Virus record (IMG/VR): IMGVR_UViG_3300045988_002471
Coordinates: 1-41,003 of that record
Direction: 5' to 3' (one strand)
Length of the DNA: 41,003 nucleotides
From: a virus
Taxonomy: Duplodnaviria; Heunggongvirae; Uroviricota; Caudoviricetes
This document shows, one piece after another, positions 4,356 to 35,001 of this stretch (within the stretch, counting starts at the first letter, position 1; each line of letters begins with the position of its first letter). Under the pieces are notes generated by a model. It made no database searches. It saw only the letters and a list, made by a program, of their open reading frames with translations, and was not told the DNA's origin. Both the position numbers and the translations under genes were made by a program.

Positions 4356-4366
4356 GGAATTGAGAA

Positions 4367-4561
4367 ATGAAACACGAATACGACCGCAAACCAGCACGTG
4401 ACATCGTACCTGGCGACATGATTTTCAACGTTAAGACCCGTCGCCCTGTTGCCGTTGATACGGTGTTCGTCGAGTCGAACGGTAAACTGGTTATCGAAGA
4501 TGTAACGGGCAACGTTACCGCGTTCGGGCGTAAAGAGCTGGTACTCTACGTTAAGGATTGA
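4367..4561 (+). CDS. Hypothetical protein (64 aa)
   Basis: ORF with RBS AAGGA; between VRR-NUC and helicase. Confidence 0.45.
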   Translation: MKHEYDRKPARDIVPGDMIFNVKTRRPVAVDTVFVESNGKLVIEDVTGNVTAFGRKELVLYVKD

Positions 4562-4563
4562 GC

Positions 4564-5988: not shown

Positions 5989-6482
5989 CCTATTGGAATG
6001 AGCTTTTTAATTACGACCCTAATACCGGGGTACTATCATGGAAAAAGTGGCGTAGGGGTGCAAAAAGAAGTTTAGTAGCGGGCACAAAGGAGCGTGACGG
6101 GTATGTGCGTGTGAAACATAAAAACAAGCATATCCCCGTTCACAGAATAATTTGGGATATGTGCAACCCTAATGATGTTCTGACTCCCGGATTCGAGATA
6201 GACCATATAAATCACATAAGGGATGACAATAGAATATTAAACTTGAGAAAAGTAGTTAAGATTGATAACAACCGCAACACGACAAGAAACAAGGCTAATA
6301 CTTCTGGGGTTGTAGGTGTACATTTTAACCGTTCGAGAGGTAAATGGGTCGCCGTTATCTACGACAATCGTAAGCTCGTTTTCTTGGGGCACTTCTCTGA
6401 TTTCAAAGACGCTGTTGCTGTCAGGAAAGCAGCGGAAATAAAATACAATTACCACGAAAACCACGGGTCAGAAAAACCATGA
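5985..6482 (+). CDS. HNH homing endonuclease with AP2 domain (paralog of 1204..1677)
   Basis: IDHINHIRDDNRILNL HNH motif plus SGVVGVHFNRSRGKWVAVI AP2-like region. Confidence 0.75.
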   Translation: MTYWNELFNYDPNTGVLSWKKWRRGAKRSLVAGTKERDGYVRVKHKNKHIPVHRIIWDMCNPNDVLTPGFEIDHINHIRDDNRILNLRKVVKIDNNRNTTRNKANTSGVVGVHFNRSRGKWVAVIYDNRKLVFLGHFSDFKDAVAVRKAAEIKYNYHENHGSEKP

Positions 6483-16976: not shown

Positions 16977-18107
16977 ATGGCCCAGAAGAAAATAACCGAC
17001 GAACAGTTACAGGAAGAATTGAACGCTGGGATGAAGAATATCGACATTGCTCGTAAATACGGCATCTCAGACCGCGTAATTCGTATCCGTAAAGCGAAGC
17101 TGGCTAAGAAAGGCGTAGGTCACGGGCGCGACGTTAGTCACCTTGTGCCGGACGGCTACAAGATTAAAGGAACGTCGTCACTGGTGGACGAGTTCGGCAA
17201 CACTAAGTTGCAATGGGTTAAAACCGACACTGACGCCGAACGTCAGGTTGAGTTGATGAAGGCCGTAATCGAGGGCATGAAGTCGGAGATTACCCCCGTT
17301 GCTCCTGTTAAAGCCGTTCGCGCCAAACGAGACGACAAGCTACTCAACCTTTACACTGTGTCTGATTTCCATCTCGGTATGCTGGCCTGGGCTGACGAGA
17401 GCGGCGACGACTGGGACATGAAGATTGCGGAAGACCTGTTCTCCCGCTGGTTCGACGCAGCGTTCCAGAAAGCACCGGATGCAGGAACAGGAGTTATTAA
17501 TCTGCTGGGCGACCTTGCGCATTTTGATAGTCTGGACGCCGTTACACCTGCCAGTGGTCATGTTCTTGACGCTGACACCCGCTATCAGAAACTTGTACGC
17601 TACATGATTCGTATGGTCCGCCGTGTCATTGATATGGCTCTCGTTAAACATAAAAATGTTCGCTTGCTTATCGTGCAAGGTAACCACGACGAAAGCGGAA
17701 TGATTTGGTTGGCTGAGATGTTCAGTACGCTATACGACAACGAGCCGCGTGTGTTCGTCGATACGTCGCCGGATGTTTACAAGATGGTGCAACACGGCAA
17801 AACTACGCTGTTCTTTCACCACGGCCATAAAGCACGATTCGATGCTATCGAACCAGTTATGATCGCCAAGTTCCGCAAAGCGTTCGGCGAGAGTGTTTAC
17901 AGCTACGCCCATATAGGACACCTGCACCATCAGAAGATTGTAGAAAGCCGTAACATGATTGTTGAACAACACCGCACCCTGGCGGCTAAAGACGCCTACG
18001 CCTCGCGCGGCGGATGGATGTCGGGCCGCAGTGCAAACGTAATTACTTATAGTGCCGAATATGGCGAGGTCGCACGTTTAACTATTTCACCGGAGATGCT
18101 TGGATGA
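16977..18107 (+). CDS. Calcineurin-like metallophosphoesterase with N-terminal HTH-like domain
   Basis: Phosphoesterase motifs DFHLG, GDLAHFD, GNHDE, HHGH, GHLHH; N-terminal about 60 aa resemble a small HTH. Confidence 0.7.
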   Translation: MAQKKITDEQLQEELNAGMKNIDIARKYGISDRVIRIRKAKLAKKGVGHGRDVSHLVPDGYKIKGTSSLVDEFGNTKLQWVKTDTDAERQVELMKAVIEGMKSEITPVAPVKAVRAKRDDKLLNLYTVSDFHLGMLAWADESGDDWDMKIAEDLFSRWFDAAFQKAPDAGTGVINLLGDLAHFDSLDAVTPASGHVLDADTRYQKLVRYMIRMVRRVIDMALVKHKNVRLLIVQGNHDESGMIWLAEMFSTLYDNEPRVFVDTSPDVYKMVQHGKTTLFFHHGHKARFDAIEPVMIAKFRKAFGESVYSYAHIGHLHHQKIVESRNMIVEQHRTLAAKDAYASRGGWMSGRSANVITYSAEYGEVARLTISPEMLG

Positions 18108-18589
18108 AAGATATTGTGATTTTCGATTTAGACGGGACATTGGCAGATGGTACTCATCGTTTACACCTGCTGCCGAAAGATAACTACGGCGAAACCTGGG
18201 CGTGGAAACCATTTAACATGGCGTGCAAAGACGATGCACCCATTAAAGATAACATCGAACTGTGTAACGCCATTAATCGTCGCTATGCCGTTATTATCTT
18301 AACAGGCCGTAGTGATGACGCGGAAAAAGAAACCAGAATGTGGTTGCAGCGCCACCGCGTCGAATTTTATCAGTTAATCATGCGCAGCAAACACGACAAC
18401 AGAAAAGACATCGTAATTAAAGAAGAGGTGTTGCGTGCTATTGGGCCGGAGAGAATCTTGTGTGCATTCGACGACTCTCCAGCGGTAATAAAGCATTTCC
18501 GCGAACTCGGCATAACCACTCACGCAGTTACTGAATACGACTGTAACGGGAACTCTACACACTTAAAACCACATGGGAGTGATAAATAA
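18104..18589 (+). CDS. HAD-family phosphatase, T4 polynucleotide kinase 3'-phosphatase-domain-like
   Basis: VIFDLDGTLA (DxDGT), IILTGRS, K, AFDDSP motifs; resemblance to T4 Pnk phosphatase domain recalled from memory. Confidence 0.65.
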   Translation: MKDIVIFDLDGTLADGTHRLHLLPKDNYGETWAWKPFNMACKDDAPIKDNIELCNAINRRYAVIILTGRSDDAEKETRMWLQRHRVEFYQLIMRSKHDNRKDIVIKEEVLRAIGPERILCAFDDSPAVIKHFRELGITTHAVTEYDCNGNSTHLKPHGSDK

Positions 18590-19143
18590 TGGCTAAGGTA
18601 ATTATTCTTAATGGTCCTGCGGGCTGCGGGAAAGACACACTTGCTAGGGCGCTGGTAGAAATGGGCTTTGCGAAGGGTGTCGCCAGTTTCAAGAATCCGA
18701 TGTTCAATATTGCTATGGCTGCGTTAGGCCAGGATGCTTACCGCGAGTTTCTCGACGGCTACGACGACCGGGCGCGGAAAGAAAAGCCAGAGGGTTTCCT
18801 TAACGGGTTGTCTCGGCGTCAGTTCATGATTGCCATTTCCGAGCAATTCATTAAACCGGTATTCGGTGATGATTATTTCGGCAAGTATCTTGCCGGAAAC
18901 TTGCCCGACGGCAACGAAGTTTTTGTAGTGTCCGACGGTGGATTCGCCAGCGAAGTAGCCCCTATCGTTGCCGCGGGGCATGATGTGAGAATCGTCCGCT
19001 TGCACAGAGACGGCCATACGTTTGAAGGGGACAGCCGCGGTTACCTGTACGATATTGATGGTGTAAAAGATTACGACACCTACATCATACCGGGTGACGT
19101 TAAATCGAACGTTATAGACATTGCTTTAAAATTAGGTTTGTAA
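18589..19143 (+). CDS. P-loop kinase (dNMP-kinase-like or polynucleotide-kinase-like)
   Basis: Walker A GPAGCGKDT; about 184 aa; start overlaps upstream stop. Confidence 0.6.
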   Translation: MAKVIILNGPAGCGKDTLARALVEMGFAKGVASFKNPMFNIAMAALGQDAYREFLDGYDDRARKEKPEGFLNGLSRRQFMIAISEQFIKPVFGDDYFGKYLAGNLPDGNEVFVVSDGGFASEVAPIVAAGHDVRIVRLHRDGHTFEGDSRGYLYDIDGVKDYDTYIIPGDVKSNVIDIALKLGL

Positions 19144-19180
19144 GAAAAAAAAAAAGGCCCCGAAAGGGGCCTTAGTTTTA
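19144..19180. terminator. Bidirectional rho-independent terminator (A-run, AAGGCCCC-gaaa-GGGGCCTT, T-run)
   Basis: Perfect stem flanked by A12 and T-run between convergent genes. Confidence 0.75.
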
Positions 19181-20350
19181 TGCGTAGGTGATACGTTGAA
19201 TTACGATAGACGACTGGTACTGATTGCCGGTAGCCTGGCCTTCAATGGACTGAGTGATTGACTCAGGCCCACCAATCTCAGGTGTAACCGCCGTAAGCTC
19301 TGCACGTTTCAAACTGAAAGACATAGCCCCGTTTACCCCTGCCAGAATAGAGTTAATCTCTACCTGCTGCTCGTTGATAAACTTCTGAATCATCGCCATG
19401 TCGTACAGCTTGCCAGAGATAGAGAATGTGTTAGCTGCGCGTCCACGTTCGACGAACGCCACGCTACTGTTACCGAGTTCGAACTGCGCGGAAGCTCCGT
19501 TGTCGTTGGTGATGGTGAGAGTATCGCAACGCAACGGCGTGGAGCCATCGAACACCGACACATCTACCGACGAGAACGGCTCATCGGTGAACGTAACCTG
19601 AGAGAAATCAGAGCCAGACGGCGACGCGGTAAGAATCTCCTGACTCAGGCCGATGAACGGGAAGCTGCCGGTGACCATGGCGTTAACCGCCTGCTCTACG
19701 GTAAAGCCAGAGATTTCCACACCTTTGGTCAGCATGTACGCGTCCGGGGTACCACACTGGCCCTTGAACCACGTCAGGATGGAGAACGTCTTACACGCGT
19801 TACCGGTTTCCAGCTTGTCGCCAGTTTTTGCGTCAGTGGTTACTGTCTCTGCTGTCAGCGTGTGCTGAATACCTGCGCCCGTAACTACCAGAGCGGAAAC
19901 CGCGGTCACGATAAACGGTTTTGCGTTGTCGCCGGTTAAGTCGGTGAACGCAATCAGGTCGCCAACTTCAACGCCGTCGGTAATAAAGCTGCCATCGGCA
20001 CGGGTGAACGTCTTGCCTGCGGGTGCAACGGTAATCGATAACCCTGACAGAGAAACCCCGGACTGCCACGTAGAGCCTAAAGCGCCCGCCAGCCAGTCGT
20101 CCTGGCTTTTCGAGCTAAGCTCAATTGCGTACTCCCCGCTAACCTGTTTGTTGCCGGTGCGGATGGAGGTAGTTTCACGGCTGCCGTCCAGTTCGTTGGA
20201 TGTCAGTGTGTCGCGGGTAATGGCAGGAACGCCACCCGTGTTACGCAACGGCGACCATACCGGGTTAGTCGGTGTTACACCCGGGGTCGCTTCCGCCACA
20301 TAGAATTGCGCCGTATTCGCGCCCTTAAAAGGAGTTGTAGCCATATTCAC
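19178..20350 (-). CDS. Major tail protein (putative)
   Basis: 390 aa; directly downstream of tail-completion genes; ATGA coupling. Confidence 0.55.
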   Translation of the reverse strand: MNMATTPFKGANTAQFYVAEATPGVTPTNPVWSPLRNTGGVPAITRDTLTSNELDGSRETTSIRTGNKQVSGEYAIELSSKSQDDWLAGALGSTWQSGVSLSGLSITVAPAGKTFTRADGSFITDGVEVGDLIAFTDLTGDNAKPFIVTAVSALVVTGAGIQHTLTAETVTTDAKTGDKLETGNACKTFSILTWFKGQCGTPDAYMLTKGVEISGFTVEQAVNAMVTGSFPFIGLSQEILTASPSGSDFSQVTFTDEPFSSVDVSVFDGSTPLRCDTLTITNDNGASAQFELGNSSVAFVERGRAANTFSISGKLYDMAMIQKFINEQQVEINSILAGVNGAMSFSLKRAELTAVTPEIGGPESITQSIEGQATGNQYQSSIVIQRITYA

Positions 20351-20760
20351 AGCCTCTTGGTGAATGCAATAAAGTTAATTGACAATGGTCGTTTGGCCCA
20401 TCCGTTTTCTACAATCAGCGGCCCCAGGCTAACCGATTGAACCTCGGCGCAGATGTCGTTACGTGAAAATGACTTACCTGCTTTAAACGCCGTGTTAAGT
20501 AAGTCTGCCATTTTATTGATCGGCGCGCTACCTTTCACCGATGCGTAGTTAATGTTGACCTGATAGATGCCCGCGCGTTGTTCCGTGAAGAACAAATCTG
20601 CTTGCTCCGTATCCGCCAGCAACATGTAACTTGCCAGATACGGCGTATCGGTTGACGTCGGCGCGTCGATGTTTTCAAGCGCGACCTTAATGCCGTTGGT
20701 GGTTCCGAAGGCTACCAGCGGCACATCGAACGCTTTCGTTAAGTCCTCAAAGTAGCCCAT
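20347..20760 (-). CDS. Tail terminator / tail completion protein (putative)
   Basis: 137 aa; position just upstream of the major tail gene. Confidence 0.45.
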   Translation of the reverse strand: MGYFEDLTKAFDVPLVAFGTTNGIKVALENIDAPTSTDTPYLASYMLLADTEQADLFFTEQRAGIYQVNINYASVKGSAPINKMADLLNTAFKAGKSFSRNDICAEVQSVSLGPLIVENGWAKRPLSINFIAFTKRL

Positions 20761-21155
20761 TATTTCACCTTGTTGGCTTCTTCGTTAATGAGTTGCTGGA
20801 AACGCGATATATTAGTTCTTACCATACCTTGTGGTGCCTGTCGCGACCAGCCATACTCCAGCCGTTGTGCATACGGCAGATTATTTGTCAGCGTGAACTC
20901 GCGCCAGTCTGTAGCTTTAAGCACGAAACTTGTAGCGTTTCCGGTTGCCGTGTTTCCTGATTTATCCGTAGCGTCTGTAATTCCGGAAGCGGGAGTGCCG
21001 CCAGACGCCATCCAGTTCATACGAAAGCGACCTGTATCTACCGGACTTGCCTTTATGATAGCGGAAAACAGTTTGATAGACACCTGACGCATCACCTTCT
21101 CGGGGTTCTTCTTCGCCTTTTCCACGAACTTAGAGACATCAAGCGCGAAACTCAT
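20760..21155 (-). CDS. Head-tail joining protein, HK97 gp10-like (putative)
   Basis: 131 aa with PVDTGRFRMNW motif recalled for this family. Confidence 0.45.
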   Translation of the reverse strand: MSFALDVSKFVEKAKKNPEKVMRQVSIKLFSAIIKASPVDTGRFRMNWMASGGTPASGITDATDKSGNTATGNATSFVLKATDWREFTLTNNLPYAQRLEYGWSRQAPQGMVRTNISRFQQLINEEANKVK

Positions 21156-21511
21156 TTTCTCACCTGAATAAAATACGCCACGACATCATCGTTAACCATC
21201 TTCTTCTCGATAGCTACGACAGACCATTGCTCGCCGCCGAATTGTACCTTGTCTTCCATTTTTGGCACGACACTGCAATCCGCTTTAACAACCATGTCGC
21301 CAGCCTGAATCGTCGTACCATTAACCAGTCCCACGTTAACCGGAACCGGAACGGCCTTCAACGGCAGCACTTCATCGTCAGGCCATACGTACTCACCGAG
21401 AACTTCATCCCACACTTTCGATCCAGCACGAACCAGAGATACCGTGCTCCCGAATTTGGTTAGCAGTCGTGTACCAACGCCTTGCATACGTTTACTGAAA
21501 GCAGTGCTCAT
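21152..21511 (-). CDS. Head-tail adaptor/connector protein (putative)
   Basis: Start set to MSTAFSK (ATG 21511, ATGA overlap with upstream stop). Confidence 0.45.
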   Translation of the reverse strand: MSTAFSKRMQGVGTRLLTKFGSTVSLVRAGSKVWDEVLGEYVWPDDEVLPLKAVPVPVNVGLVNGTTIQAGDMVVKADCSVVPKMEDKVQFGGEQWSVVAIEKKMVNDDVVAYFIQVRK

Positions 21512-22125
21512 CTGGCGGCCTCCAGTCTCGAAATAACCAGTAGCGCGGACGGTGCTGTGCCCCATGCGGTTACGGTAGCGACTTGTGGGTACACGCCGCC
21601 GAAGTTAGTTCCGGCGCTATCCCGCATAATCTGTATAGCCAGCGTCTGACCGGCAGCAGGGTTAACAACTACACGCGATTCGATCGGGATTGTTACGTCG
21701 GCGCTTACCAGTTTAGTTGCTGCGGGAGAACCGTACTGAGCACCATTAAGAAGAATGCGCGATAACAGGATTGACGTTCCGCTAGCGCCCGTGCGCCCGG
21801 CCTGTAACTTGATGCGAACGGCATAGTTTACGGGGGTGTTGAACGTAACCAGCCCCGCAGCATTAATCATTACCGGGTCGGATGCGCTACCCTGAGCAGA
21901 GCCGAAAGTTAACTGCAACGCCGTGTCTACTGCGGTAGGCGCTTGAGCTACAGTAACCGCAGCACGGAGAACTTCAACTTCTTTAACGCCTGGAGTGGCG
22001 TAAATAGGAGAGTCCGCCATCTGTGTCATTACTTCGCGTAACTTCGCGGGGGTGATAAGCCCGGTGGTGTTGTCGGGAAGATTCGCACCGATAAGGGTGA
22101 ACATCTCTGTTTTAGTTTTCACCAT
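21508..22125 (-). CDS. Virion structural protein (hypothetical, 205 aa)
   Basis: Track ORF within the structural block. Confidence 0.45.
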   Translation of the reverse strand: MVKTKTEMFTLIGANLPDNTTGLITPAKLREVMTQMADSPIYATPGVKEVEVLRAAVTVAQAPTAVDTALQLTFGSAQGSASDPVMINAAGLVTFNTPVNYAVRIKLQAGRTGASGTSILLSRILLNGAQYGSPAATKLVSADVTIPIESRVVVNPAAGQTLAIQIMRDSAGTNFGGVYPQVATVTAWGTAPSALLVISRLEAAR

Positions 22126-22127
22126 TT

Positions 22128-22640
22128 TTAACCCCGGTACACGTTAAACGAGAAGCCATTGTTAAGACCGCCGCACAGTAACGGGCGTAATGCGTCGTCA
22201 GCAGCGGTAATCGCGGTTGTAGCTCCACTGCTGCCGTTGTTGAAGTAGGTTACAGTCACCGCACCCTCGACACGCTCAGTCTGCACGGAACGACCGTCTG
22301 AGTTGGCCCGCACCTCAGTACCCGCACCATATGTAGCGGCAGCGATTACCTGCGCAAGAATCACCTGCTTCGGAATGGTATTGTTAGCTACCGAGAAGCC
22401 ATTCAACGTTACCCCAGTGCGGGGGTACGCCAGCGACTGTTCAGCGGATACACGGCTACCGCACATCTGAGGTTCTGCAAGCCCAACATAAGTAGCACCG
22501 TTGCGCAGGGCCACCTCTGCGGCGGTATCGTCTGCTGGTAACCCAAGACCGTAATTAGCCGCTAACGCGCGGGCGTCGGCCAGACTAACGTAACTGTCGG
22601 CATCAGGTACTATCGACCCATCTTCCACGATTAGCGGCAT
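22128..22640 (-). CDS. Virion structural protein (hypothetical, 170 aa)
   Basis: Track ORF within the structural block. Confidence 0.45.
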   Translation of the reverse strand: MPLIVEDGSIVPDADSYVSLADARALAANYGLGLPADDTAAEVALRNGATYVGLAEPQMCGSRVSAEQSLAYPRTGVTLNGFSVANNTIPKQVILAQVIAAATYGAGTEVRANSDGRSVQTERVEGAVTVTYFNNGSSGATTAITAADDALRPLLCGGLNNGFSFNVYRG

Positions 22641-22643
22641 AAA

Positions 22644-22811
22644 TTATTCCTCTGATTTAGCCCGACGCTGGCGGCGCGGTGTCTCTTCTTTAGCCGATTC
22701 TACCACGGTGCCTTCTGGTGCGAAACGAGCATCTACCACACGGAACCCCTGGCGGTTATACTCGCGCTTCTGCTCGATGGTAATCGGCATTGGTACATAT
22801 TTAATTTCCAC
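22644..22811 (-). CDS. Small basic protein (55 aa, GTG start)
   Basis: Own translation VEIKYVPMPITIEQKREYNRQGFRVVDARF...; RBS AGGAG 9 nt upstream. Confidence 0.3.
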   Translation of the reverse strand: MEIKYVPMPITIEQKREYNRQGFRVVDARFAPEGTVVESAKEETPRRQRRAKSEE

Positions 22812-22828
22812 TTTAATTTCTCCTAGTA

Positions 22829-22858
22829 AAAAGGGGCCGTAGCCCCTTTGTTTTTACC
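22829..22858 (-). terminator. Terminator-like hairpin after the capsid gene (AGGGGC-tacg-GCCCCT + T-run on minus strand)
   Basis: GC stem plus TTTTTAC just 3' of the capsid stop. Confidence 0.5.
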
Positions 22859-22868
22859 ACTAACTGTA

Positions 22869-23837
22869 TCACTTGTCCGCGTCGGCGATTGCCAGAGTAC
22901 CGAGGGTGTGTTTGTTCTCGGCAACAGCTTTGCCCCAGTTGGCCTCGGTGAACAGTTCTTCGTCCAGCGGAGATTTACCGCCGTTGGTGACATCCCAGCT
23001 ATAGCCTTTCAGTTTCAGGCCGAAGCTGTAATCCGCCTGCCAGGTGGTCTGGATGCGGGTGTTACCGTTGCTGGTATCAATGTTGCTGATAATATCAGAA
23101 GCATTATCAACGATGATGCCGTTGGCAACTACGGACAGGACCTTAGTCTTGTTCGGAGTACCGGCCTCGTACAGCGCAGGAATGTCAGAGATTACGTAAC
23201 GCTTGCCGAGAACATCGACAACCATAACGTTACCAGCAACGAACAGCTGGTTTGCGTTAGTCAGCGCTTTATCTACCAGCGTGTGGTAAGCAGCACCGGT
23301 CATGATGTCGGTAATCAGCAGCTGAGACTGGTCGCCGAATTTAGCGTGGCTGTTGTTCAGCACGTTCAGGGACAGACCCACGGTTGTAGATACATCGTTA
23401 ACCAGCGCGGCCTGACCAGATACCGCCGCAACAGCTGCACCAACAGCGGTGTTGAGCTGGTCTGCTAACAGTGCATCGGAGAAGCCTTCGGAAATAGCAC
23501 GAATCGCGCTTGCTGGGTCTTCGTTAAGCCAGGTCATTTGCGCAGGCTCGAACAGTACCGGTCCGAAGCCGCCAGCGACTTTAACGCCCACATGCTCGCC
23601 CTGAGTCAGCGCGGTAGCTGCCTGAGACTCGATAGTGGCGTAACGGTCAACGCGGCGTTTAGCGGAGGCAATCTGGTTAAAGAAAGACTCACGGGAGAAG
23701 TCACCGCGCCATGAAGCGGTAGACAGTACAATTGCGCCGCCGGAGGCTGCGTTAAACTGGTCAGTTTTCTGACCAAGCAGTTCGATAGTGGTACCGACGA
23801 TATCGTCGTTATAAACCTTCATATCTGACAGAGACAT
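22869..23837 (-). CDS. Major capsid protein
   Basis: 322 aa; follows scaffold; terminator downstream. Confidence 0.75.
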   Translation of the reverse strand: MSLSDMKVYNDDIVGTTIELLGQKTDQFNAASGGAIVLSTASWRGDFSRESFFNQIASAKRRVDRYATIESQAATALTQGEHVGVKVAGGFGPVLFEPAQMTWLNEDPASAIRAISEGFSDALLADQLNTAVGAAVAAVSGQAALVNDVSTTVGLSLNVLNNSHAKFGDQSQLLITDIMTGAAYHTLVDKALTNANQLFVAGNVMVVDVLGKRYVISDIPALYEAGTPNKTKVLSVVANGIIVDNASDIISNIDTSNGNTRIQTTWQADYSFGLKLKGYSWDVTNGGKSPLDEELFTEANWGKAVAENKHTLGTLAIADADK

Positions 23838-23843
23838 ATTCTG

Positions 23844-24470
23844 TTATCCTCGTTTGCCGTATTTGGCGTTAAGTTTTTGCTGAATTACGTCAGTACCACC
23901 GGCCCCGCCAGTAGAATTTTTGTTACCGGAAGCCCCGCCGCCGGTTGCTGCATCTGCTTTAATCAGATGCGAAAATGCTTTGTGCTCACGCAGATACTTT
24001 TTAAATTGCTCTGCGTCGGTGGTGATGACATTACCGTCTGCACCAGTGAACTTGGTAACAACGTCATCGCCGTCGAACTCGGTCTTGACCATCATAGCGA
24101 TGATATCCGCTGCGCTCTCATCAATCAACATGCCAGACAACTGGCTGATAACTGATTTACGTTCCGCGCCGAGGATACGCTCAGCCATTTTGCTAATCTT
24201 ACCGTCTTTCTCGGCGAGTACTGGCTCATACTGACTGCGCAACGTTTTCTCGAATGCCTCAAGTTCGCCGTTCTGTTTTGCGCGTTCCTGTTCGGCTTTC
24301 AGCTTCGCATCTGCGGCTTCTTTAGCGGCAGCGGCAGCAGCTTTCTTTTCAGACAAGAGTTTCTCGTTGTTAGCTTTAAGACCTGATACCAGCGCGTCAA
24401 CTTCTTCTTTGGTAAACGTGGTCTTAGTCTCTTGTTGTTCGATAGTTTCGTCTTTCACTTCTTCGCTCAT
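23844..24470 (-). CDS. Scaffolding protein
   Basis: Acidic, Ala/Lys/Glu-rich coiled-coil upstream of capsid; start set to MSEEVK (ATG 24470) after RBS. Confidence 0.55.
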   Translation of the reverse strand: MSEEVKDETIEQQETKTTFTKEEVDALVSGLKANNEKLLSEKKAAAAAAKEAADAKLKAEQERAKQNGELEAFEKTLRSQYEPVLAEKDGKISKMAERILGAERKSVISQLSGMLIDESAADIIAMMVKTEFDGDDVVTKFTGADGNVITTDAEQFKKYLREHKAFSHLIKADAATGGGASGNKNSTGGAGGTDVIQQKLNAKYGKRG

Positions 24471-24549
24471 CAGTATGTCCCCTGGACGTTGGAATCCGGG
24501 CCTCCCGGATTTACATGTCAAGAATAAATTATTCCAACATACAAGGCAA

Positions 24550-24813
24550 CTATTCCAGAATATTCCTCACATAATCCTGCAACATGAACACTTTCAGTCT
24601 CAACTGCCGTACACATTCGGCGTTCTGAACGTCGATAGCTAAATCCTCGTCAGAGTCGCTACTTGGCGCCGCCAGTTTGCACGGCGGCTGCATCATCGTC
24701 GTATCCGGGGATGGAATTGGCGTTTGCGACGGCGCGGGACTTGAGCAGGACGCGAGCATCATCGAAAGTGCACACGCTGCGACCCGGCGTTTTAATGTAC
24801 TTAACGACTTCAC
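24550..24813 (-). CDS. o-spanin (Rz1-like outer-membrane lipoprotein), overlapped with i-spanin
   Basis: Lipobox-like MMLASC then Pro-rich periplasmic region; starts inside i-spanin in a different frame. Confidence 0.55.
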   Translation of the reverse strand: MKSLSTLKRRVAACALSMMLASCSSPAPSQTPIPSPDTTMMQPPCKLAAPSSDSDEDLAIDVQNAECVRQLRLKVFMLQDYVRNILE

Positions 24814-25045
24814 GGGTGATTACCTCTGATTTCGTCTTGCCTTCGTTATCAGCGGCGGCGGCCTTTGATTCATCCTGCTGCTGCCGTTGTGTTTTCTTCG
24901 CTAACTCAGCCTGTGCTTCCTGCTGTTGCTGCGAAACGAGATTCGCCCGGCCTTCGTTCCAGCCGCTGTGATACTGGTAGATGCCGTGGGCATAAGTCAG
25001 GATGATAAAACATGCCCCCGCTACGACAGTTGCTTTAAGATTCAT
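24659..25045 (-). CDS. i-spanin (Rz-like)
   Basis: N-terminal TM helix ATVVAGACFIILTYAHGIY then Gln/Ala-rich coiled coil. Confidence 0.6.
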   Translation of the reverse strand: MNLKATVVAGACFIILTYAHGIYQYHSGWNEGRANLVSQQQQEAQAELAKKTQRQQQDESKAAAADNEGKTKSEVITREVVKYIKTPGRSVCTFDDARVLLKSRAVANANSIPGYDDDAAAVQTGGAK

Positions 25046-25071
25046 GTTTCCCCTTTCTCGATAAGTAAAGC

Positions 25072-25096
25072 CCCGCCTTAAAGCGGGGCGCTAGTC
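25072..25096 (-). terminator. Terminator-like hairpin (GCCCCGC-N6-GCGGGGC + U-rich tail) in the leader just upstream of the spanin RBS
   Basis: 7-bp GC stem then TTTACTTAT on the minus strand. Confidence 0.45.
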
Positions 25097-25168
25097 CTTA
25101 TCATTTAAACATAGAAACGGCGTAATCTCAGTAAACCAGTTACTTTTTACACAAGCAATAGAGTATGG

Positions 25169-25263
25169 CCCTTCCGAACGCGTCAGCGTAACTACACTCA
25201 GGACTTACGTCCCGCTCCGTTACCTGCCCGCGCCGCGGTCGCTTGTTCATACTTCACAAGCTC
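25169..25263 (-). ncRNA. Candidate structured leader RNA / cis-regulatory element, copy A
   Basis: Conserved blocks shared with 35876..35971; two hairpins at matching positions with different sequences; dedicated upstream promoter. Confidence 0.4.
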
Positions 25264-25269
25264 AGGTGG

Positions 25270-25298
25270 AGCTTAGCACATTTTCAGTGAAAAGTCAA
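25270..25298 (-). promoter_or_regulatory. Promoter TTGACT-N14-TGc-TAAGCT (extended -10) for element copy A
   Basis: -35 at 25298..25293, -10 at 25275..25270; same promoter at 35978..36006. Confidence 0.45.
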
Positions 25299-25361
25299 CT
25301 ATTCGAATAGTTTATTCCAACATTTACAATTATGTGGAATAACTGGAATAATCACAGGCGC

Positions 25362-25385
25362 TAAAAAGCCCCTTTCGGGGCTTAA
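25362..25385 (-). terminator. Rho-independent terminator after the Ig-like gene
   Basis: AAGCCCC-tttc-GGGGCTT with T-run on the minus strand. Confidence 0.6.
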
Positions 25386-25387
25386 GT

Positions 25388-25849
25388 TTATTCTGGCTTC
25401 GTAGCCTTCGCAGCTTTACTCACCGCCTCAACTCCAGTGGCATCAGTAACTTTAACGAAGTATTCACCCACCGCGTTAACCGTCAGAGACAAAGCCTCTT
25501 CCGGGGCGTTTACCACTTCCTTGCCGTCTTTGTACCAGGTCAGAGTATACGGCGCTTTACCTGCCTTAACTTCGACGGTGATGGTGGCGCTACCGTCGAC
25601 CAGCTCGGTGTCTTTCGGTTGCACCGAGAAATACACGTCACCTGCATCCGCCAGATACGGAATCTCGTAAAGCATACCCGCCGCGGGCAACGCAATGCCC
25701 GTTTTATCTGCAAACGGCATATCGTCTACAGGGGTACCCAGTACACTTTCATCATCAATAAACACCACGTTCTCACCAGAGCCAGACACGCGGGCGTACT
25801 GGACTACGCGACGTGACGGTACATCAGTTACTTTGAAAAAGCCCATCAT
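25388..25849 (-). CDS. Ig-like domain structural protein (possible head decoration)
   Basis: C-terminal TITVEVKAGKAPYTLTWYKDGKEV...EYFVKVTDATG; start overlaps upstream stop. Confidence 0.5.
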   Translation of the reverse strand: MMGFFKVTDVPSRRVVQYARVSGSGENVVFIDDESVLGTPVDDMPFADKTGIALPAAGMLYEIPYLADAGDVYFSVQPKDTELVDGSATITVEVKAGKAPYTLTWYKDGKEVVNAPEEALSLTVNAVGEYFVKVTDATGVEAVSKAAKATKPE

Positions 25850-26892
25850 TAATCCCCTTTCAGATAATCAGCAACACGTTTATCGAGTTCCGCCATCTGC
25901 TTAAGCGTGAGCGGATTCCCGAAACCATCTACAGATATTACGCGAAACTCTTCCGGAGATATACCGCTGTTACGGAAAATCTTACCGCGAACAGGGCCGA
26001 GGGCCTGTTCCTGGAACCACGCCGGTTGTTGCTTCAGGAACTCGTAGTAAGTGGTGTCTGCGCTTACCTGAGTACCACCATCTGCGCCTTTAGCCGCTCG
26101 TTTTGCGCCCTTATCGAGGAAGTCGAACTCCGAGCTAATTACCGGCGCAGTGGTACTTCGGCAATTCGGATGCGCCGGCGGCATCGGCCCCTTACCGATT
26201 TCCCACGTCATCCCGTCCCGGGCCCTGCAAATCGTACTGGTACGGCTGTCAAGCGTTGACACCCACTCATATTTCTCGATGATGTCGTCGTTCTGGCGGT
26301 ACGTCTCGTTACGGGCTTCGTTGGATACGTGAGACAGCGCAGTGCGGGTTACCGTCGCGGCGTTACGCTCAGAGATGTCCGCCAGCCCACCAGCGCCAAC
26401 AACATTCTTAACAATCTGCCGTGTTGTCTGACCTTGTACAAAGCCCATCTTAACGCCGGTTACAAGACGTGCTACTTCCGTTTCACCCCAACCTGACATC
26501 AGTTTAGTGAAATCAACGGGCTTGTCGCTTAACGATAATGGCTGAAACTCAGCAGCGGCCCATACCTGTTCCGCGGTAGGTGTAACAAATTCTGCGTTAA
26601 CGTTGGCAGTCAGCGTTTTTACGTTCCACTCAGCCTCATACGCCGCCAGTTCCTTGAGGTCTTCTGTCAGCTTTGTTTGCCAGTCACCTGTAATCCCTGT
26701 CAGTGCTTCTTCAAGGTCGCGTAACAATTTATTCAGTCGCGCGGTGCTGCGACCGTCGTCGCCGAATAGCAACACCTGCCGTTTGATTTCGTCCCGCATC
26801 TCCTGAATGAACGGCGCAAGGTCTTTCACTTCGCCGGATGCGGTGCGTTGCAGCCATATCTGGTGGCTGATTAGGGATGTCAGTAAGCTCAT
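25849..26892 (-). CDS. Head morphogenesis protein (Mu F / SPP1 gp7-like, putative)
   Basis: 347 aa; located downstream of portal; RBS AGGAGG. Confidence 0.6.
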   Translation of the reverse strand: MSLLTSLISHQIWLQRTASGEVKDLAPFIQEMRDEIKRQVLLFGDDGRSTARLNKLLRDLEEALTGITGDWQTKLTEDLKELAAYEAEWNVKTLTANVNAEFVTPTAEQVWAAAEFQPLSLSDKPVDFTKLMSGWGETEVARLVTGVKMGFVQGQTTRQIVKNVVGAGGLADISERNAATVTRTALSHVSNEARNETYRQNDDIIEKYEWVSTLDSRTSTICRARDGMTWEIGKGPMPPAHPNCRSTTAPVISSEFDFLDKGAKRAAKGADGGTQVSADTTYYEFLKQQPAWFQEQALGPVRGKIFRNSGISPEEFRVISVDGFGNPLTLKQMAELDKRVADYLKGD

Positions 26893-26973
26893 ATACCCTC
26901 CTGTTTCGATATGACAATCATATCAGTCGGTAACGTATTGGCATAATCATACGCATTTAAGGTTAAAAAGAGC

Positions 26974-27007
26974 TTGATTAAATTCTACATTCAAATGTAG
27001 AATTTAA
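26974..27007 (+). promoter_or_regulatory. Promoter TTGATT-N18-TAGAAT overlapped by a 13-bp-arm inverted repeat (26978..27007)
   Basis: TTAAATTCTACAT-tcaa-ATGTAGAATTTAA spans the spacer and -10 upstream of the KilA-N gene. Confidence 0.55.
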
Positions 27008-27034
27008 ACGTACACTTAAACAGGAGAAATACGC

Positions 27035-27688
27035 ATGAAACTGCAAACATTAGAGTTCCCTTATGGAGAAATCACTTTTGACCGTGAAAACTTTATTAAC
27101 GTAAACGAGCTGGTTGACCAGATGAACCGTTGGCGTTTAGACAACGGCATGGGGACAAGAGAGCTTCGCCAGGTCATGGCAACGGATGGCTTCAAGATTT
27201 TCAAGGAGGAATGCGAAAAACAACTCGGAATCGAGAATGCCATAAGGGCGACGAAAGGCCGAAACGGTCGCACCTTTGCATGTCTCCATCTGGCAGTATA
27301 TATTGCTGAGCAATACAGCGCCTATTTCCATTTCCTCGTTATCGACCGCTTTATCACACAACGGCAGGTAGAACTACGAAACATTGGCGCGGTGAGCTTT
27401 GTCGAGCTTAACGCTGCCGTTAGTCGAATGATTGAGCGCACGGAGGGAAGAATTGGCCACAGTGGACACTTCATACAGGTGGCTAAAGCGGTAAAGGAAT
27501 CCGTAGATATCCGCGACGTAACGGGTTTCGATACATGGGACTCTCAGGATGCGAAGACCAATCAGTTGCGAAGTGACATCCAGAAAGCTCTGGTGACACT
27601 TCTTGACATGGAGGCCGTTAATACATGGGGTGAACTGAAAGAGGCGATACCCCGGGTTGTGCGTAAATGTGCGGCTAATATACGTTAA
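27035..27688 (+). CDS. KilA-N domain protein
   Basis: N-terminal ...INVNELVDQ...GRNGRTFACLHLAVYIAEQYSAYFHFLVIDRF matches KilA-N/APSES pattern from memory; only plus-strand gene inside the head module. Confidence 0.6.
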   Translation: MKLQTLEFPYGEITFDRENFINVNELVDQMNRWRLDNGMGTRELRQVMATDGFKIFKEECEKQLGIENAIRATKGRNGRTFACLHLAVYIAEQYSAYFHFLVIDRFITQRQVELRNIGAVSFVELNAAVSRMIERTEGRIGHSGHFIQVAKAVKESVDIRDVTGFDTWDSQDAKTNQLRSDIQKALVTLLDMEAVNTWGELKEAIPRVVRKCAANIR

Positions 27689-27692
27689 AGCT

Positions 27693-27720
27693 AAGGCCCC
27701 TAGCGGGGCCTTTCTATTTA
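27693..27720 (+). terminator. Rho-independent terminator (AAGGCCCC-tagc-GGGGCCTT + T-rich) between KilA-N gene and portal 3' end
   Basis: Perfect 8-bp stem then TCTATTTA. Confidence 0.6.
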
Positions 27721-29199
27721 CTCCTGCTGTTGCGCCGACTGCGGAATCTCGCCAGTTACCTGAGTAACAGCGCCTAACGGCACAGGTGCATCCTCAATAG
27801 CCGTTGTAATCTCCTCGTCAGTCCAGTCAGTTACCCCAGCCTTACGCAACGCGGCGTAGTAAGCAGTTGCCGGTAGTAAACCGGCATTAATGTCTGCCAT
27901 CCACTGCGCACGGTCCTGAGCGGTCATTGGTTGCAGGAAGAACTCCATGTTCAGTTTGAACTCAATTTCAGTGCTGTCGCTAATCCCAAGCATACCCGCG
28001 ACCCAGCGCAACGCATCGGTATACGCCATGCTTACGTTACGTGCGATTGTTGCCATAACGGACGTATCAGCGCCGCGTTGCAGACGCGCCGATTCAGCAG
28101 TGATTTGCTGCGTCGGGGTAATAAGCTGTGCACCAATCTGGATAGCCTGATTCTCTTTATCCAGCATGTTCTGTTTGGCGAGGTTGTTCTCTCCTGCCTG
28201 AACCAGAAACGCATTGCCGCCGTAACCGATGTTATGGCCTGAACGCGACCCCATGCGCACGCCGTGAGGGTTAGCTTCTTTCCACTGCGCCATGCTCATA
28301 TTCTCACCGGGGGCGATGAACAGAGTAGGCTGGCCTACGACGAAGCTGGACTCCTCATTGTCCGCGCTGTTGCGGAAGTGCCCGATATTAAGTTCAGCCA
28401 ACGGCAGCAAAGGTGCATCGTCAGGGGTTGGGTCGTTATTTCCCGCGCCGATGAACGTGAACGGAATCACCCCGACCGGAATATTACCGAGTTTCGGGAA
28501 TATTTCGATATAGCCACCTTCCATCAGTGCACCTTTCTGGTTAAAGCGGTACAGACGCTGGCGATACTGGCCTTCGAAAATATCAAGGACGCGGTATTGC
28601 TCGCCGTAGTTGGGGCTGAACTCATCCGCGCCATCGGTGTACTCGTATTCCTCACGCAATACAACCATAACCACACGATTAACAGACCCGACGCGCTGGA
28701 GACGCCAGTTGATGATGTTCTCTGCGGTGTAGAAAGCGATTGTTGGGTTTAGTAAACCCTCGTTTTGCTCTGCCATGGTAGCTACTTCTACCGCGGGGGC
28801 GTCAACCAGCAAACCACCGCGACCAACAGCATCAATCTCATACAGAGTATCCTGTGCGTGCTGCCACAGGCCAACGCCCGACCCGTCACAGTTAGTGGTC
28901 AGGTATTCCATCTGAGACGGAATAATCATCTCGGGGTCTTTGCGCATTACGCTGCCGACCATGCCTGAAAGCGTTCGCTTGGTGAAGTTGTAGCAAATTG
29001 CCCCCGCTTCGTATTCAGCCTGACGCTGGCGACCGTAAACCGGGTCCGGCTCGTTCTTACTGACGTCACGTAGATACGATGTCAGGTCGCCAGAAAGCGC
29101 ATGTCGCACCTTCTGCCACTTAGGGAAATACTCTTCGTACTGGCGGTGGCGGGTTTTAACGTTCTGCCCTTGCCCTGCGTTAATGTTTGCGGAAACCAT
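27718..29199 (-). CDS. Portal protein
   Basis: 493 aa directly downstream of terminase large subunit. Confidence 0.75.
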   Translation of the reverse strand: MVSANINAGQGQNVKTRHRQYEEYFPKWQKVRHALSGDLTSYLRDVSKNEPDPVYGRQRQAEYEAGAICYNFTKRTLSGMVGSVMRKDPEMIIPSQMEYLTTNCDGSGVGLWQHAQDTLYEIDAVGRGGLLVDAPAVEVATMAEQNEGLLNPTIAFYTAENIINWRLQRVGSVNRVVMVVLREEYEYTDGADEFSPNYGEQYRVLDIFEGQYRQRLYRFNQKGALMEGGYIEIFPKLGNIPVGVIPFTFIGAGNNDPTPDDAPLLPLAELNIGHFRNSADNEESSFVVGQPTLFIAPGENMSMAQWKEANPHGVRMGSRSGHNIGYGGNAFLVQAGENNLAKQNMLDKENQAIQIGAQLITPTQQITAESARLQRGADTSVMATIARNVSMAYTDALRWVAGMLGISDSTEIEFKLNMEFFLQPMTAQDRAQWMADINAGLLPATAYYAALRKAGVTDWTDEEITTAIEDAPVPLGAVTQVTGEIPQSAQQQE

Positions 29200-29210
29200 T
29201 TGTTGTCCTC

Positions 29211-30461
29211 TTAAAGTGCGAAAGTCACAGGGATGTTGATTACTGGTTTAACCACCGGCATCTCGTAAACTACAGGATAGCCGAGAGCATCCGCCATATG
29301 GTCAATGATGCCGTCTTTAGCTGGCTCTCCGTTATCGTCGTATGCCTGCTGCTCCAGCGTCTTCGCTATCTCAGGGCATAAGTGGTCGTTAATCCACAGT
29401 TTACCTTTTTCCAGTGCGGTATTCACGGCTAAAACACGGTCTTTAACCGGAGGGTTGGCGGATTTAGCGCGAACATCGAAACCTGCCTGCTGGAGTAACG
29501 CAATATCTGAGATTGACGCCGAGTTGGTCTTGCGGTTCTTGCCGCTGGCGTCCGGGTAAACGACTATGCGGTGGCCCTGCGACTTCCACTTCTCAGTAAT
29601 TACGCGCACGGTATCCGGTGTATCGAACAGGCCTTTCAGTTCTGCTACCGCGTGCCAGCCGTCTTTACGTTGCACATACACGGCGCTTGCGTTCTTCGTA
29701 ACGTTGAAGTCCTGCCCGATGTACAACGTGTCACCCGGTTGAATTACCTCTTTGCTGCGGTGCTTACGGCGGTCATATGCGTAATACACGCTGCCGGAGG
29801 TAAGGTTGACGAACTCACCATTCAGATACGCGTTAATCAACTGCGCCGGATAAGTCTCGGTCAGCGAACTAATGTAGTCAGGCGGCAGGAATCGCGCGTT
29901 CTCGTGTGTAGAAGCCTGCACCATCGAGTAACTCGGCGTCGGGTTCTCTTTGAACTTGGCGTAGACGAACTTGAACCCTTCCGGTGTCGTGGTGACAGAG
30001 ATGTGGTTAATTACACCAGGAATAACAAGACGCATACGGGCGACAATTTTGTTCCACGCCAGCTCAGCTTTCTCACGGCTCAATACATCAAGCTCATCCA
30101 CGACCGCAGCGGCGATTTTGAAGCCGACTATCGAGCCTGGGTTATCCATAGAACGGCAGATAACTGTACCGAGCACCGTCTTACCGCGAGTAACCACGAC
30201 TTCTTTGTCGCCAGATTTAACCAGCACATCGAGGCCGAGCAGGTTAGCGGCTTCCTCAAATGTCGGGTAGAAGATGTCACGGATAGCCGGGTATGTCGGG
30301 CCGAAGTAACCCAGGCGCGTACCTGGATGCTTGAGCATAAACGTAAGCAGGTCAAGGCAGCCAACAAATGTCTTGCCACTGCCGAAGCCGCCGACGTAGG
30401 CCTTGTATTTATTATCGCAATTCAGGAACAGCGCCTGAGGGGCGGATAGCTGAATACTCAT
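29211..30461 (-). CDS. Terminase large subunit
   Basis: Walker A GGFGSGKT near N-terminus; 416 aa; ATGA coupling to upstream small subunit. Confidence 0.85.
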   Translation of the reverse strand: MSIQLSAPQALFLNCDNKYKAYVGGFGSGKTFVGCLDLLTFMLKHPGTRLGYFGPTYPAIRDIFYPTFEEAANLLGLDVLVKSGDKEVVVTRGKTVLGTVICRSMDNPGSIVGFKIAAAVVDELDVLSREKAELAWNKIVARMRLVIPGVINHISVTTTPEGFKFVYAKFKENPTPSYSMVQASTHENARFLPPDYISSLTETYPAQLINAYLNGEFVNLTSGSVYYAYDRRKHRSKEVIQPGDTLYIGQDFNVTKNASAVYVQRKDGWHAVAELKGLFDTPDTVRVITEKWKSQGHRIVVYPDASGKNRKTNSASISDIALLQQAGFDVRAKSANPPVKDRVLAVNTALEKGKLWINDHLCPEIAKTLEQQAYDDNGEPAKDGIIDHMADALGYPVVYEMPVVKPVINIPVTFAL

Positions 30462-31003
30462 TCCTCTACCTCGCCCATGTTTGTGGTAACTATTTTGCCT
30501 ACGGGCTCCGCAACACTGAAAATAATCTCAGTCGGTGCCGTTTCTTCGGTGGATTCGACCGGTTTCTCTTTGCTAAGGCCTAGCTTCGCGGCAGCAAATG
30601 TAGCCGAGATGCCCGCGGCCCCGGTCTCGGTGAAGTATGCCTCTTCCAGTGCCTGTGCAGTTTCATAGGCTTCTGCAAATGCGGGAATCTCGCGCAGCCA
30701 CAGCTTAATAATCGGGATAGTGACGCCGATGTGCAGGGCGAAGCGGGCCAGTGATGGGGGTTTATCCTGAATCAGCGGGCGCTCTTCACCCTTGGACGTA
30801 GGCACAAGTTCCCATGACGTGCGGTCGAAGAACTCGATTAGCGCGTCGCAATAATCCGGGTCCCACAGCGCGGCGGAATTACGGGATGATTGATAAAGGC
30901 TCTGTTTACCGCGCGGTCGTTTACGTCGGCGGTTTGCGCTAACAGCTTCTTCATGTGCAGCTTGCACCACCTCTGGCGATGGCTGCTTGAGTTTCAGCTT
31001 CAT
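30458..31003 (-). CDS. Terminase small subunit (putative)
   Basis: Immediately upstream of and overlapping the large subunit; start set to ATG 31003 after RBS AAGGGGA. Confidence 0.5.
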   Translation of the reverse strand: MKLKLKQPSPEVVQAAHEEAVSANRRRKRPRGKQSLYQSSRNSAALWDPDYCDALIEFFDRTSWELVPTSKGEERPLIQDKPPSLARFALHIGVTIPIIKLWLREIPAFAEAYETAQALEEAYFTETGAAGISATFAAAKLGLSKEKPVESTEETAPTEIIFSVAEPVGKIVTTNMGEVEE

Positions 31004-31095
31004 ATAATCCCCTTGCATATGCGTCTGACCATCAGAGCGCACCAGACGCGCCCTACGCGTCTAAAGGGATTATATAAGGGGATTGGGCGGGATGT

Positions 31096-34877: not shown

Positions 34878-35001
34878 TGTTGCATCTCCTGCAATAGTCG
34901 CTTCGATTGTTGCGTTTGATGAAAGTGTCGCCTTTTGACGACACTAAGTTAAAGTTGTACGCTGCTGTGTAGCAGCGTAAGTCATTAAGCCAAATAGTAA
35001 G

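Follow-up and report, generated by a model that had tools for sequence, protein, structure and literature searches.

The 41,003-nucleotide stretch of viral DNA analysed here (the window, on which all coordinates are counted unless another locus is named) carries a block of structural genes on its minus strand (19178..31042, ~12 kb), comprising the tail, head, head-morphogenesis, portal, and large and small terminase genes. Within this block, the open reading frame (ORF) listing gives a sole plus-strand gene, at 27035..27688, which begins with ATG, encodes 217 amino acids and is the subject of this report. The original prediction had described a lone KilA-N gene of opposite orientation between the portal and head-morphogenesis genes, and both the listing and the Pfam and PHROG matches of the neighbours bear out that arrangement. 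Together with the control region in front of it, the gene forms a cassette (~26893..27692) for which we favour a joint reading: it would be a horizontally acquired accessory gene, or moron, that represses itself through a palindrome over its own promoter. The features of the locus are as follows.

25849..26892, minus strand: head-morphogenesis gene (SPP1 gp7/Mu F family; Pfam Phage_Mu_F, E 2e-13; PHROG 241), the left flank.
26893..27034, no strand: AT-rich intergenic control region (33% GC) that came with the cassette, from junction alignment and GC content.
26917..26944, minus strand: candidate leftward promoter of the head-morphogenesis gene, ATGCCA-N16-TATGAT with an upstream TG, from a consensus scan.
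26974..27003, plus strand: predicted sigma-70-type promoter of the KilA-N gene, TTGATT-N18-TAGAAT, with a predicted start near 27010, from a consensus scan.
26978..27007, no strand: perfect palindrome, TTAAATTCTACATT-CA-AATGTAGAATTTAA, a putative operator, from an inverted-repeat search.
27022..27026, plus strand: ribosome-binding site AGGAG, 8 nt upstream of the ATG, read directly from the sequence.
27035..27688, plus strand: KilA-N coding sequence, with a KilA-N/APSES-fold N-terminal domain and a conserved helical C-terminal domain (PHROG 6095).
27149..27283, plus strand: variable segment, residues ~39–83 (helices 44–48 and 51–64, beta-hairpin 70–83), from alignment and a structure model.
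27350..27685, plus strand: all-helical C-terminal domain, residues ~106–217, from alignment, the structure model and the ratio of nonsynonymous (dN) to synonymous (dS) divergence.
27693..27720, no strand: GC hairpin, AAGGCCCC-TAGC-GGGGCCTT, and T-run, a predicted terminator common to the KilA-N gene and the convergent portal gene.
27718..29199, minus strand: portal gene (Pfam DUF4055, E 6e-24; PHROG 145), the right flank.

We assign the 217-residue protein to the KilA-N family by homology and fold. On its own, it matches the Pfam KilA-N profile (PF04383) over profile positions 10–100 of 107 at 21.0 bits (E 3e-4), below the gathering score of 23.8; the same profile is matched by 18 of 21 close homologs (E ≤ 0.01, best 2.9e-5) and by 33 of 50 distant ones (best E 7.1e-18), several of which exceed 23.8 bits. 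A profile search returned 142 homolog representatives, mostly of 200–225 amino acids and aligned over their full length. The best sequence matches of the family profile in the PDB were to Mbp1, aligned over the G-x-G-K...T-W...A motif, and a Foldseek search against viral models (BFVD) matched KilA-N and N1R/p28 proteins. The N-terminal beta strands, helix-turn-helix (HTH)-like helices and beta-hairpin wing of the APSES/KilA-N fold are all present. These sub-gathering, homolog and structural matches together support the family membership that the original prediction had proposed. In the profile alignment, the variable segment at residues 39–83 falls on the HTH helices and wing of Mbp1, which we take to be the DNA-contacting elements of the Mbp1 structures.

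The KilA-N family, which includes P1 KilA, baculovirus Bro, poxvirus N1R/p28 and fungal APSES proteins such as Mbp1, is typical of phages and large DNA viruses, and its members have in common an N-terminal beta/alpha fold with a G-x-G...T...A-x-x-x-A motif, fused to an unrelated C-terminal module. The window protein differs in its sub-threshold Pfam score and in its C-terminal domain, which is not an ANT/KilAC, Bro-C, RING or T5orf172 module, belongs to no described family and, over residues ~106–217, matched no Pfam or PDB family. The top whole-chain Foldseek match was DdrC (E 6e-3, low TM score), which binds DNA as a dimer and combines a winged-helix N-terminal domain with a helical C-terminal one; this is no more than a hint of a related architecture. 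The original prediction had noted that KilA-N proteins are often antirepressor-like or toxic to the host. The Ant/KilAC antirepressor class is ruled out by the absence of the ANT domain, as PF03374 matched neither the protein nor its C-terminal half (Jersey gp22, encoded elsewhere in the genome of phage Jersey, matches ANT at 1.5e-9). The homing endonuclease class is likewise ruled out by the absence of a nuclease domain: no such domain or motif was detected by Pfam or by NCBIfam, and the latter gave no match to the protein at all. A search for defence systems with PADLOC returned a single match (E 0.002, 15 bits, 53 residues) at the level of chance noise.

An alignment of homologs from Jersey-like phages divides the gene into a variable block at residues ~39–83 and an almost invariant stretch at residues 84–213. 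By the Nei–Gojobori method, the C-terminal half has dN of 0.016–0.06 and dS from 0.2 to saturation (dN/dS ratio, omega, 0.03–0.09), and the N-terminal half has dN of 0.08–0.46 with saturated dS. Both halves of the gene encode protein under purifying selection. A non-coding constraint on the conserved 3′ half is ruled out: against several relatives dS is saturated while dN is 0.04, so the constraint acts on the protein. The N-terminal half falls into separate types, and the gene as a whole is a mosaic whose breakpoint lies close to the border between the domains; mosaic recombination also accounts for the low dS against AG11 and Jersey.

The promoter-like site in front of the gene matches the sigma-70 consensus at 9 of 12 positions, with a spacer of 18 nt. 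Its position is conserved in all relatives compared (−35 hexamer, 17–18-nt spacer, TAnnAT), and RpoD-type promoters were annotated by the GenBank authors at the homologous place in AG11 and Jersey. Overlying it is the palindrome, whose perfect arms of 14 nt flank a 2-nt centre; the original prediction had given its coordinates correctly but its arms as 13 nt. The left arm begins within the −35 hexamer, the right arm holds the −10 hexamer, and the core AAAT-N18-ATTT spans 26 bp (26980..27005). No longer perfect inverted repeat was found anywhere in the window, and single-strand DNA folding gives the palindrome a z-score of −6.0. It is also unique: no second copy was found in the window, even with three mismatches (0 expected by chance), and half-sites occur elsewhere only at chance level. 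In the whole Jersey genome, the corresponding palindrome or half-site (type A, below) is likewise found only at the KilA-N promoter. Because the site is confined to one promoter, no regulon of similar sites is visible in either the window or Jersey. A role for the palindrome as a transcription terminator is ruled out: the stem consists largely of A and T, neither strand has a T-run next to it, and the predicted start lies downstream of it. Rfam matches over the palindrome or the gene were at chance level only, far below gathering scores. The same window scan listed imperfect long inverted repeats at 34949..34988 (18-nt arms, 78%) and 6871..6907 (16-nt arms, 81%).

We compared the corresponding region in ~55 loci. 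Each has a TTGnnn −35 hexamer, a spacer of 17–18 nt and a TAnnAT −10 hexamer. In four types (A, B, D and E), a symmetric element extends from at or inside the −35 hexamer to just beyond the −10, and its AAAT...ATTT ends span 26 bp (27 bp in L016, the SS3e record). Each type goes with its own variant of residues 39–83:

Type A: AAATGGTATAT-N4-ATATACCATTT, in Jersey, L018–21 and L041–43; protein variant FKHLRQLMTT...
Type B: AAATTCTACATT-[CA or TG]-AATGTAGAATTT, in the window, EcoPhCCP1, L008–10, L022, L024 and L048–60, and imperfect in L034–37; protein variant TRE[LI]RQVMATD...
Type C: a single good half-site that is TATAAT-TT itself, in the SETP3-like phages, the most numerous; protein variant LQPRNLAQILKTDDC...
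Type D: GAATACTA-N10/11-TAGTATTC, in L016, L033 and L046; protein variant EKNLSQLLSTEQ...
Type E: AAATACTAC-N8-GTAGTATTT, in L026–29; protein variant TKNLSQLLATEQ...

Across the 14 distinct sequences of types A, B, D and E, 4 of 11 arm positions (half-site positions 1, 5, 6 and 9) show compensatory changes, and the arms pair in 96% of cells, as against 27–55% when the partners are slid. The specificity dinucleotide coincides with positions 3–4 of the −10 hexamer, its least constrained positions. Protein and operator similarity give the same grouping, A with B and D with E, and the pairing of types A and B with their residue 39–83 variants holds in three unrelated upstream contexts each; in L008–L010, for instance, the gene lies in an unrelated upstream context. 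The sole mixed arrangement is that of the AG11-like phages (~39 records), which combine an A-type protein with a B palindrome that has a degraded −35 hexamer (TCGGTT). Just upstream, these phages have an insertion of a full A-type promoter with its palindrome, between copies of a 29-bp direct repeat, a configuration that supports matched pairs of protein and operator. Upstream regions of more distant homologs (L038 and L039) are suggestive, not systematic. In L038, a metagenomic phage-like contig, two distant paralogs (4001..4651 and 5703..6356) lie near each other beside an HNH gene, with a terminator before each; the second has an 11-nt-arm palindrome, AAAAGTAACAT, and a third arm copy upstream.

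Might the palindrome have no binding partner at all? It could be a by-product of the correction, by template switching, of a quasi-palindrome seeded by the −10 hexamer, or a cruciform that tunes promoter strength. The palindrome does bear marks of such events. Its centre (26992..26993 in the window) has flipped between CA and TG at least two independent times among cassettes that are 97–100% identical (the window, L003 and L048–L060), and flips are also seen in type A (CTAT/ATAG; L002, L018 and L043) and type E (GTCTGGAT/ATCCAGAC; L026 and L028); flipped centres of this kind point to template switching, or to inversion of the spacer, at the palindrome. In L028, at roughly −70 to −15 relative to the gene, the arms have been homogenised to a perfect 24 nt each (56 bp in all), including a mirrored −35 hexamer, which would make this a fully symmetric and potentially bidirectional promoter. 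Against a by-product, the 26-bp frame and its placement with respect to the −35 and −10 hexamers are shared by four unrelated arm sequences. Types D and E are symmetric only in their outer 8–10 bp, with 8–11 central bases unpaired, which fits two protein half-sites better than a hairpin, and single-mismatch variants are rare (L055 and L034–37). We therefore consider a palindrome without a partner quite unlikely.

The position, symmetry, uniqueness and covariation of the palindrome instead favour negative autoregulation by the KilA-N protein at its own promoter, which strengthens the suggestion of the original prediction that the gene is probably autoregulated. In this model, TTGATT-N18-TAGAAT would serve host sigma-70 RNA polymerase as the promoter of the gene, presumably at an early stage of infection. 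The N-terminal KilA-N/APSES-fold domain would read DNA, and the near-invariant helical C-terminal domain would dimerise the protein, carry an effector function, or both. A dimer could then bind both half-sites (AAAT-TC-TAC) of the 26–30-bp palindrome, occluding the promoter spacer and −10 hexamer and shutting off its own promoter; such self-repression would keep a potentially harmful DNA-binding protein low and steady. DNA binding is suggested indirectly, by the covariation of the HTH and wing residues with the adjacent palindrome, and promoter activity, binding of this palindrome, repression, dimerisation and the time of expression are what we infer from the pattern as a whole. Taken together with the acquisition of the cassette from Jerseyviruses, described below, self-repression through the palindrome is the joint explanation that we judge best, with a little more in its favour than against it.

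Several observations weigh against this explanation. The region holds four promoter-like sites where 3.0 are expected, which is not above chance, and the 18-nt spacer of the proposed promoter is long. Operator and N-domain types lie less than 300 bp apart, and their association could be plain linkage. Perfect symmetry alone is weak evidence, because template switching acts on these palindromes and can produce it at quasi-palindromes. The most numerous loci, those of type C, offer only a single good half-site, and the palindrome there is a weak one of 6 nt; the P0033-type loci have an 8-nt-arm palindrome downstream of the putative −10. The structure model has a pTM of 0.53 with modest confidence between domains, and we found no literature on this gene in Jerseyvirus, Kagunavirus or Guernseyvirinae, neither experiments nor transcript data.

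The palindrome might also be the operator of another regulator, a phage early protein or a host factor, with the KilA-N protein acting elsewhere. The site lies over a promoter whoever its ligand may be, its binding by the KilA-N protein is only deduced, and the phage has other small DNA-binding proteins, such as the HTH and excisionase-like regulators annotated in Jersey. A separate regulator is, however, hard to reconcile with a site that occurs at one promoter only in the window and Jersey, and whose type, at several genomic positions and in several contexts, follows that of the KilA-N variant beside it; the cassette, moreover, sits in a Kagunavirus backbone that is otherwise without Jersey-specific genes. 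We regard this alternative as rather unlikely.

A further possibility arises from the nearest functional analogy, the abortive-infection protein BstA of the Salmonella prophage BTP1, a KilA-N-like prophage-defence protein of 307 amino acids that occurs in variants, each with a cognate 5′ DNA element, aba, which is 63 bp long, has terminal direct CCCGCC repeats and overlaps the start codon (PMC8585504). Like BstA, the window protein has a KilA-N-like N-domain and a second domain, a short DNA element at the 5′ end of its gene and a pairing of variants. By this analogy, the palindrome could be a self-recognition site rather than, or besides, an operator: the KilA-N protein would act on the DNA of a competitor phage or the host, and its cognate site would neutralise or redirect it. 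The variants and their matching palindromes would then form a self/non-self DNA recognition system of virulent Guernseyvirinae, used in phage competition or host takeover and akin to BstA and aba but unrelated to them in sequence. The activity of BstA is itself suppressed by a DNA element, specific to each variant, at the 5′ end of its gene (PMC8585504), variant-specific pairs of protein and site are what we see here, the C-terminal domain is near-invariant (dN 0.02–0.06, with dS saturated in several pairs), and the gene is kept in ~93% of Salmonella Jerseyviruses and rare in their E. coli relatives. Self-recognition would explain why diversified specificities stand alongside an invariant C-terminal effector domain. 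If it were true, that domain would be directed at DNA or at a conserved target in the host, to attack or silence it, while the variable HTH and wing read a type-specific site. The one cognate site in the phage genome itself would then serve both to throttle expression and as a label of self.

The likeness to BstA does not extend to sequence or element, however. An hhalign comparison gave a probability of 0.1% and BLASTP an E value of 0.055 over 28 residues; aba is built of direct repeats and overlaps the start codon, whereas the window element is a 26–30-bp palindrome over a promoter; and the window protein has 217 amino acids and comes from a phage that is virulent rather than a prophage. Furthermore, every type has its element precisely over the spacer and −10 hexamer, as a repressor site would need to be but a decoy would not. 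A self-recognition system is thus, in our estimate, unlikely, and we retain autoregulation as the preferred account of the palindrome.

Self-repressing operons of comparable logic are familiar. In Aca-controlled anti-CRISPR promoters, AcrIIA1 and I-TevI, a strong or constitutive promoter lies under an inverted repeat bound by the operon's own product, and AcrIIA1 joins an N-terminal repressor domain to a C-terminal effector domain. Those regulators use an HTH, whereas the window protein has a KilA-N domain; it is not known to have anti-defence activity, and the PADLOC match noted above is at chance level. To our knowledge, the way in which phage KilA-N domains read DNA has hardly been studied, and the four palindromic operator types with their matched HTH and wing variants offer a compact natural series for KilA-N DNA recognition.

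We turn now to the origin of the cassette. The window backbone is that of a K1G-like Kagunavirus, a phage of E. coli K1, with 93% identity to K1G, K1H and UTI89UKE1 over 25 kb, and its nearest DNA relatives are Kagunaviruses (the head-morphogenesis gene has 94% identity to that of L AB-2017). In all three cassette-free Kagunaviruses examined (L AB-2017, Bas73 and RP180), which are K1G-like and have this backbone in common with the window, the junction is uninterrupted: portal gene, ~70 bp, head gene. Junction alignment of these empty sites with Jersey and AG11 puts the left boundary of the cassette at the head gene start codon, the point at which a ribosome-binding site of Jerseyvirus form takes over, and the intergenic control region (26893..27034) stands in for ~45 bp of the cassette-free site. 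The right boundary is the GC hairpin, which has an 8-bp GC stem (27693..27712) followed by TCTATTT. The same hairpin lies at the empty site, with T-runs on both sides in RP180, and because it is already present in these cassette-free relatives it was not brought by the cassette: it is a pre-existing portal terminator, now common to two convergent genes. The original prediction had called the gene self-contained; a promoter-like site and a terminator-like hairpin are predicted, but the latter predates the insertion.

Distribution points the same way. The gene occurs in 342 phage records, of which 335 are from Salmonella and only 3 from Escherichia, whereas the head gene matches 359 Salmonella and ~110 Escherichia/Kagunavirus records; carriers thus make up 335 of ~359 Salmonella Jerseyvirus records (~93%) and 3 of ~110 Escherichia/Kagunavirus records. 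The exact 217-residue protein is also found on at least 24 metagenome contigs, and scans of metagenomes and genome collections contributed only four more loci. A few relatives have the gene at another place in the genome: P0033-type copies sit upstream of the small terminase gene, and those of L008–L010 have unrelated DNA in front of them. In composition, the gene is unlike its neighbours, although the difference is modest: its GC content is 48.2% (51.8% at third codon positions), against 53–54% (57–62%) in the flanking genes.

Divergence among carriers adds a time scale. In 13 cassette-bearing Kagunavirus-like genomes (loci compared: the window, L003 and L048–L060), pairwise identity of the cassette is 96–100%, compared with 87–93% for the head-morphogenesis gene and 84–92% for the 3′ part of the portal gene in most pairs; some of the genomes are almost identical to one another. 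The 3′ part of the portal gene in the window (27718..29188) stands apart, with 75–78% identity to all other carriers, which suggests a recombinant allele. Because the cassette is far less diverged than its flanks, its entry into this gene pool was recent by comparison with the alleles of the backbone, and since then it has spread, or been retained, while the flanks recombined. Taken together, the empty site, patchy distribution, other genome positions in relatives, lower GC content and low divergence relative to the flanks support, from comparison of genomes, the view that the segment of ~26893..27692 is a horizontally acquired moron of Jerseyvirus type, as the original prediction had proposed. 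A near-identical cassette between flanks that are 7–16% diverged in E. coli phages marks an accessory gene that spreads or is retained across recombining virulent backbones and implies a selected function. The invariance of the C-terminal domain and the ~93% retention in Salmonella Jerseyviruses further imply a selected interaction with a conserved partner.

An insertion at this place would have consequences for the late operon, which the cassette breaks after the portal terminator. Late transcripts are probably stopped at the portal hairpin, and for this reason the head gene probably has a leftward promoter of its own in the intergenic region. The candidate at 26944..26917 contains the conserved TGATATGAT, and a block, CAATCATATCAG, is conserved there in Jersey, AG11, L018, L020 and L041–43. 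Morons were defined in lambdoid and HK97-type phages as additional genes, each equipped with a promoter and a terminator, that lie between conserved genes. The cassette resembles them in being absent from the same junction in close relatives and in its predicted promoter and terminator, independent orientation and lower GC content. It differs from them in three ways: the phage is virulent, so lysogen fitness offers no rationale; the gene makes use of a terminator that was already at the insertion site; and the cassette interrupts a late operon, for which it probably must supply a restart promoter.

The pattern of spread also raises the question of whether the gene is a relic, without nuclease, of a free-standing homing endonuclease of the GIY-YIG type, spread by past homing and with little present function. 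Some distant full-length homologs, which have the KilA-N domain and the same helical C-terminal domain over their whole length, carry an additional N-terminal GIY-YIG, MUG113 or T5orf172 nuclease domain; the terminase–portal–head hotspot of this phage group harbours selfish elements (the Jersey homing endonuclease and the L033 intein, described next); and the cassette is sporadic in Kagunaviruses and near-identical in diverged backbones. The window protein, however, lacks the ~100-residue nuclease domain and starts directly with KilA-N, most family members are likewise ~200–225 amino acids long, and an omega of 0.03–0.09 with near-universal retention in Jerseyviruses argues for a current function. 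A homing relic is accordingly very unlikely in our view, and acquisition of a functional moron remains the reading that we prefer. The gene is a well-delimited addition to a known kind of accessory gene, and it brings a series of covarying operators and DNA-binding domains, together with a correction of annotation.

The terminase–portal–head region of this phage group is a hotspot of selfish elements. In Jersey, the portal and terminase genes are separated by a homing endonuclease gene (L002, 5045..6424), the head-morphogenesis gene of L033 (1..1322) contains an intein (PF14890), and the head genes of RP180 (L006, 1833..3626) and S55 (L046, 1860 nt) are much longer, probably through inteins.

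The correction concerns the name under which the gene is filed. PHROGs assigns it to phrog_6095 with the label 'amidase' (E 8e-121). An amidase or lysis function was rejected: no catalytic domain (Amidase_2, Amidase_3, Amidase_5 or CHAP) was found by Pfam or NCBIfam, in the C-terminal half even at E ≤ 10, and no amidase was among the structural matches. The Jersey record annotates a separate holin–endolysin module elsewhere in the genome. Because no amidase domain or fold was found, the name is an inherited error, and the annotation can be traced to the records of SE2, wksl3 and E1. Some UniRef and NCBI entries already name a KilA-N domain protein. Several hundred genomes of Jersey-like phages, many of them proposed for Salmonella biocontrol, mislabel the gene as an amidase, and a correction is due.

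A few individual records deserve comment. L044 (NC_073171.1, phage horsemountain) has two truncated copies of the gene at 1257..2726, one of type C and one of type D, and between them lie stretches of N along with repeated pieces of the portal and head genes; this looks like the assembly of a mixed population rather than a real tandem duplication. In L016 (AY730274.2, phage SS3e), a frameshift interrupts the gene after codon 19, which could be a sequencing error or a pseudogene. L025 (NZ_JACVEL010000022.1), a Jersey-like phage contig with the gene, is filed under an assembly of Taishania pollutisoli (Bacteroidota), and the homolog P0019 is labelled Acinetobacter baumannii; both host labels probably reflect contamination of the assemblies with phage DNA.

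Finally, the window has a second opposite-strand island in its structural region, at 16977..19143 on the plus strand. Its products are a metallophosphoesterase-like protein (376 amino acids), a PNKP-type HAD phosphatase (161 amino acids, E 1e-19) and an AAA_18 kinase-like protein (184 amino acids), which look like a split polynucleotide kinase/phosphatase set for the repair of RNA or DNA ends.

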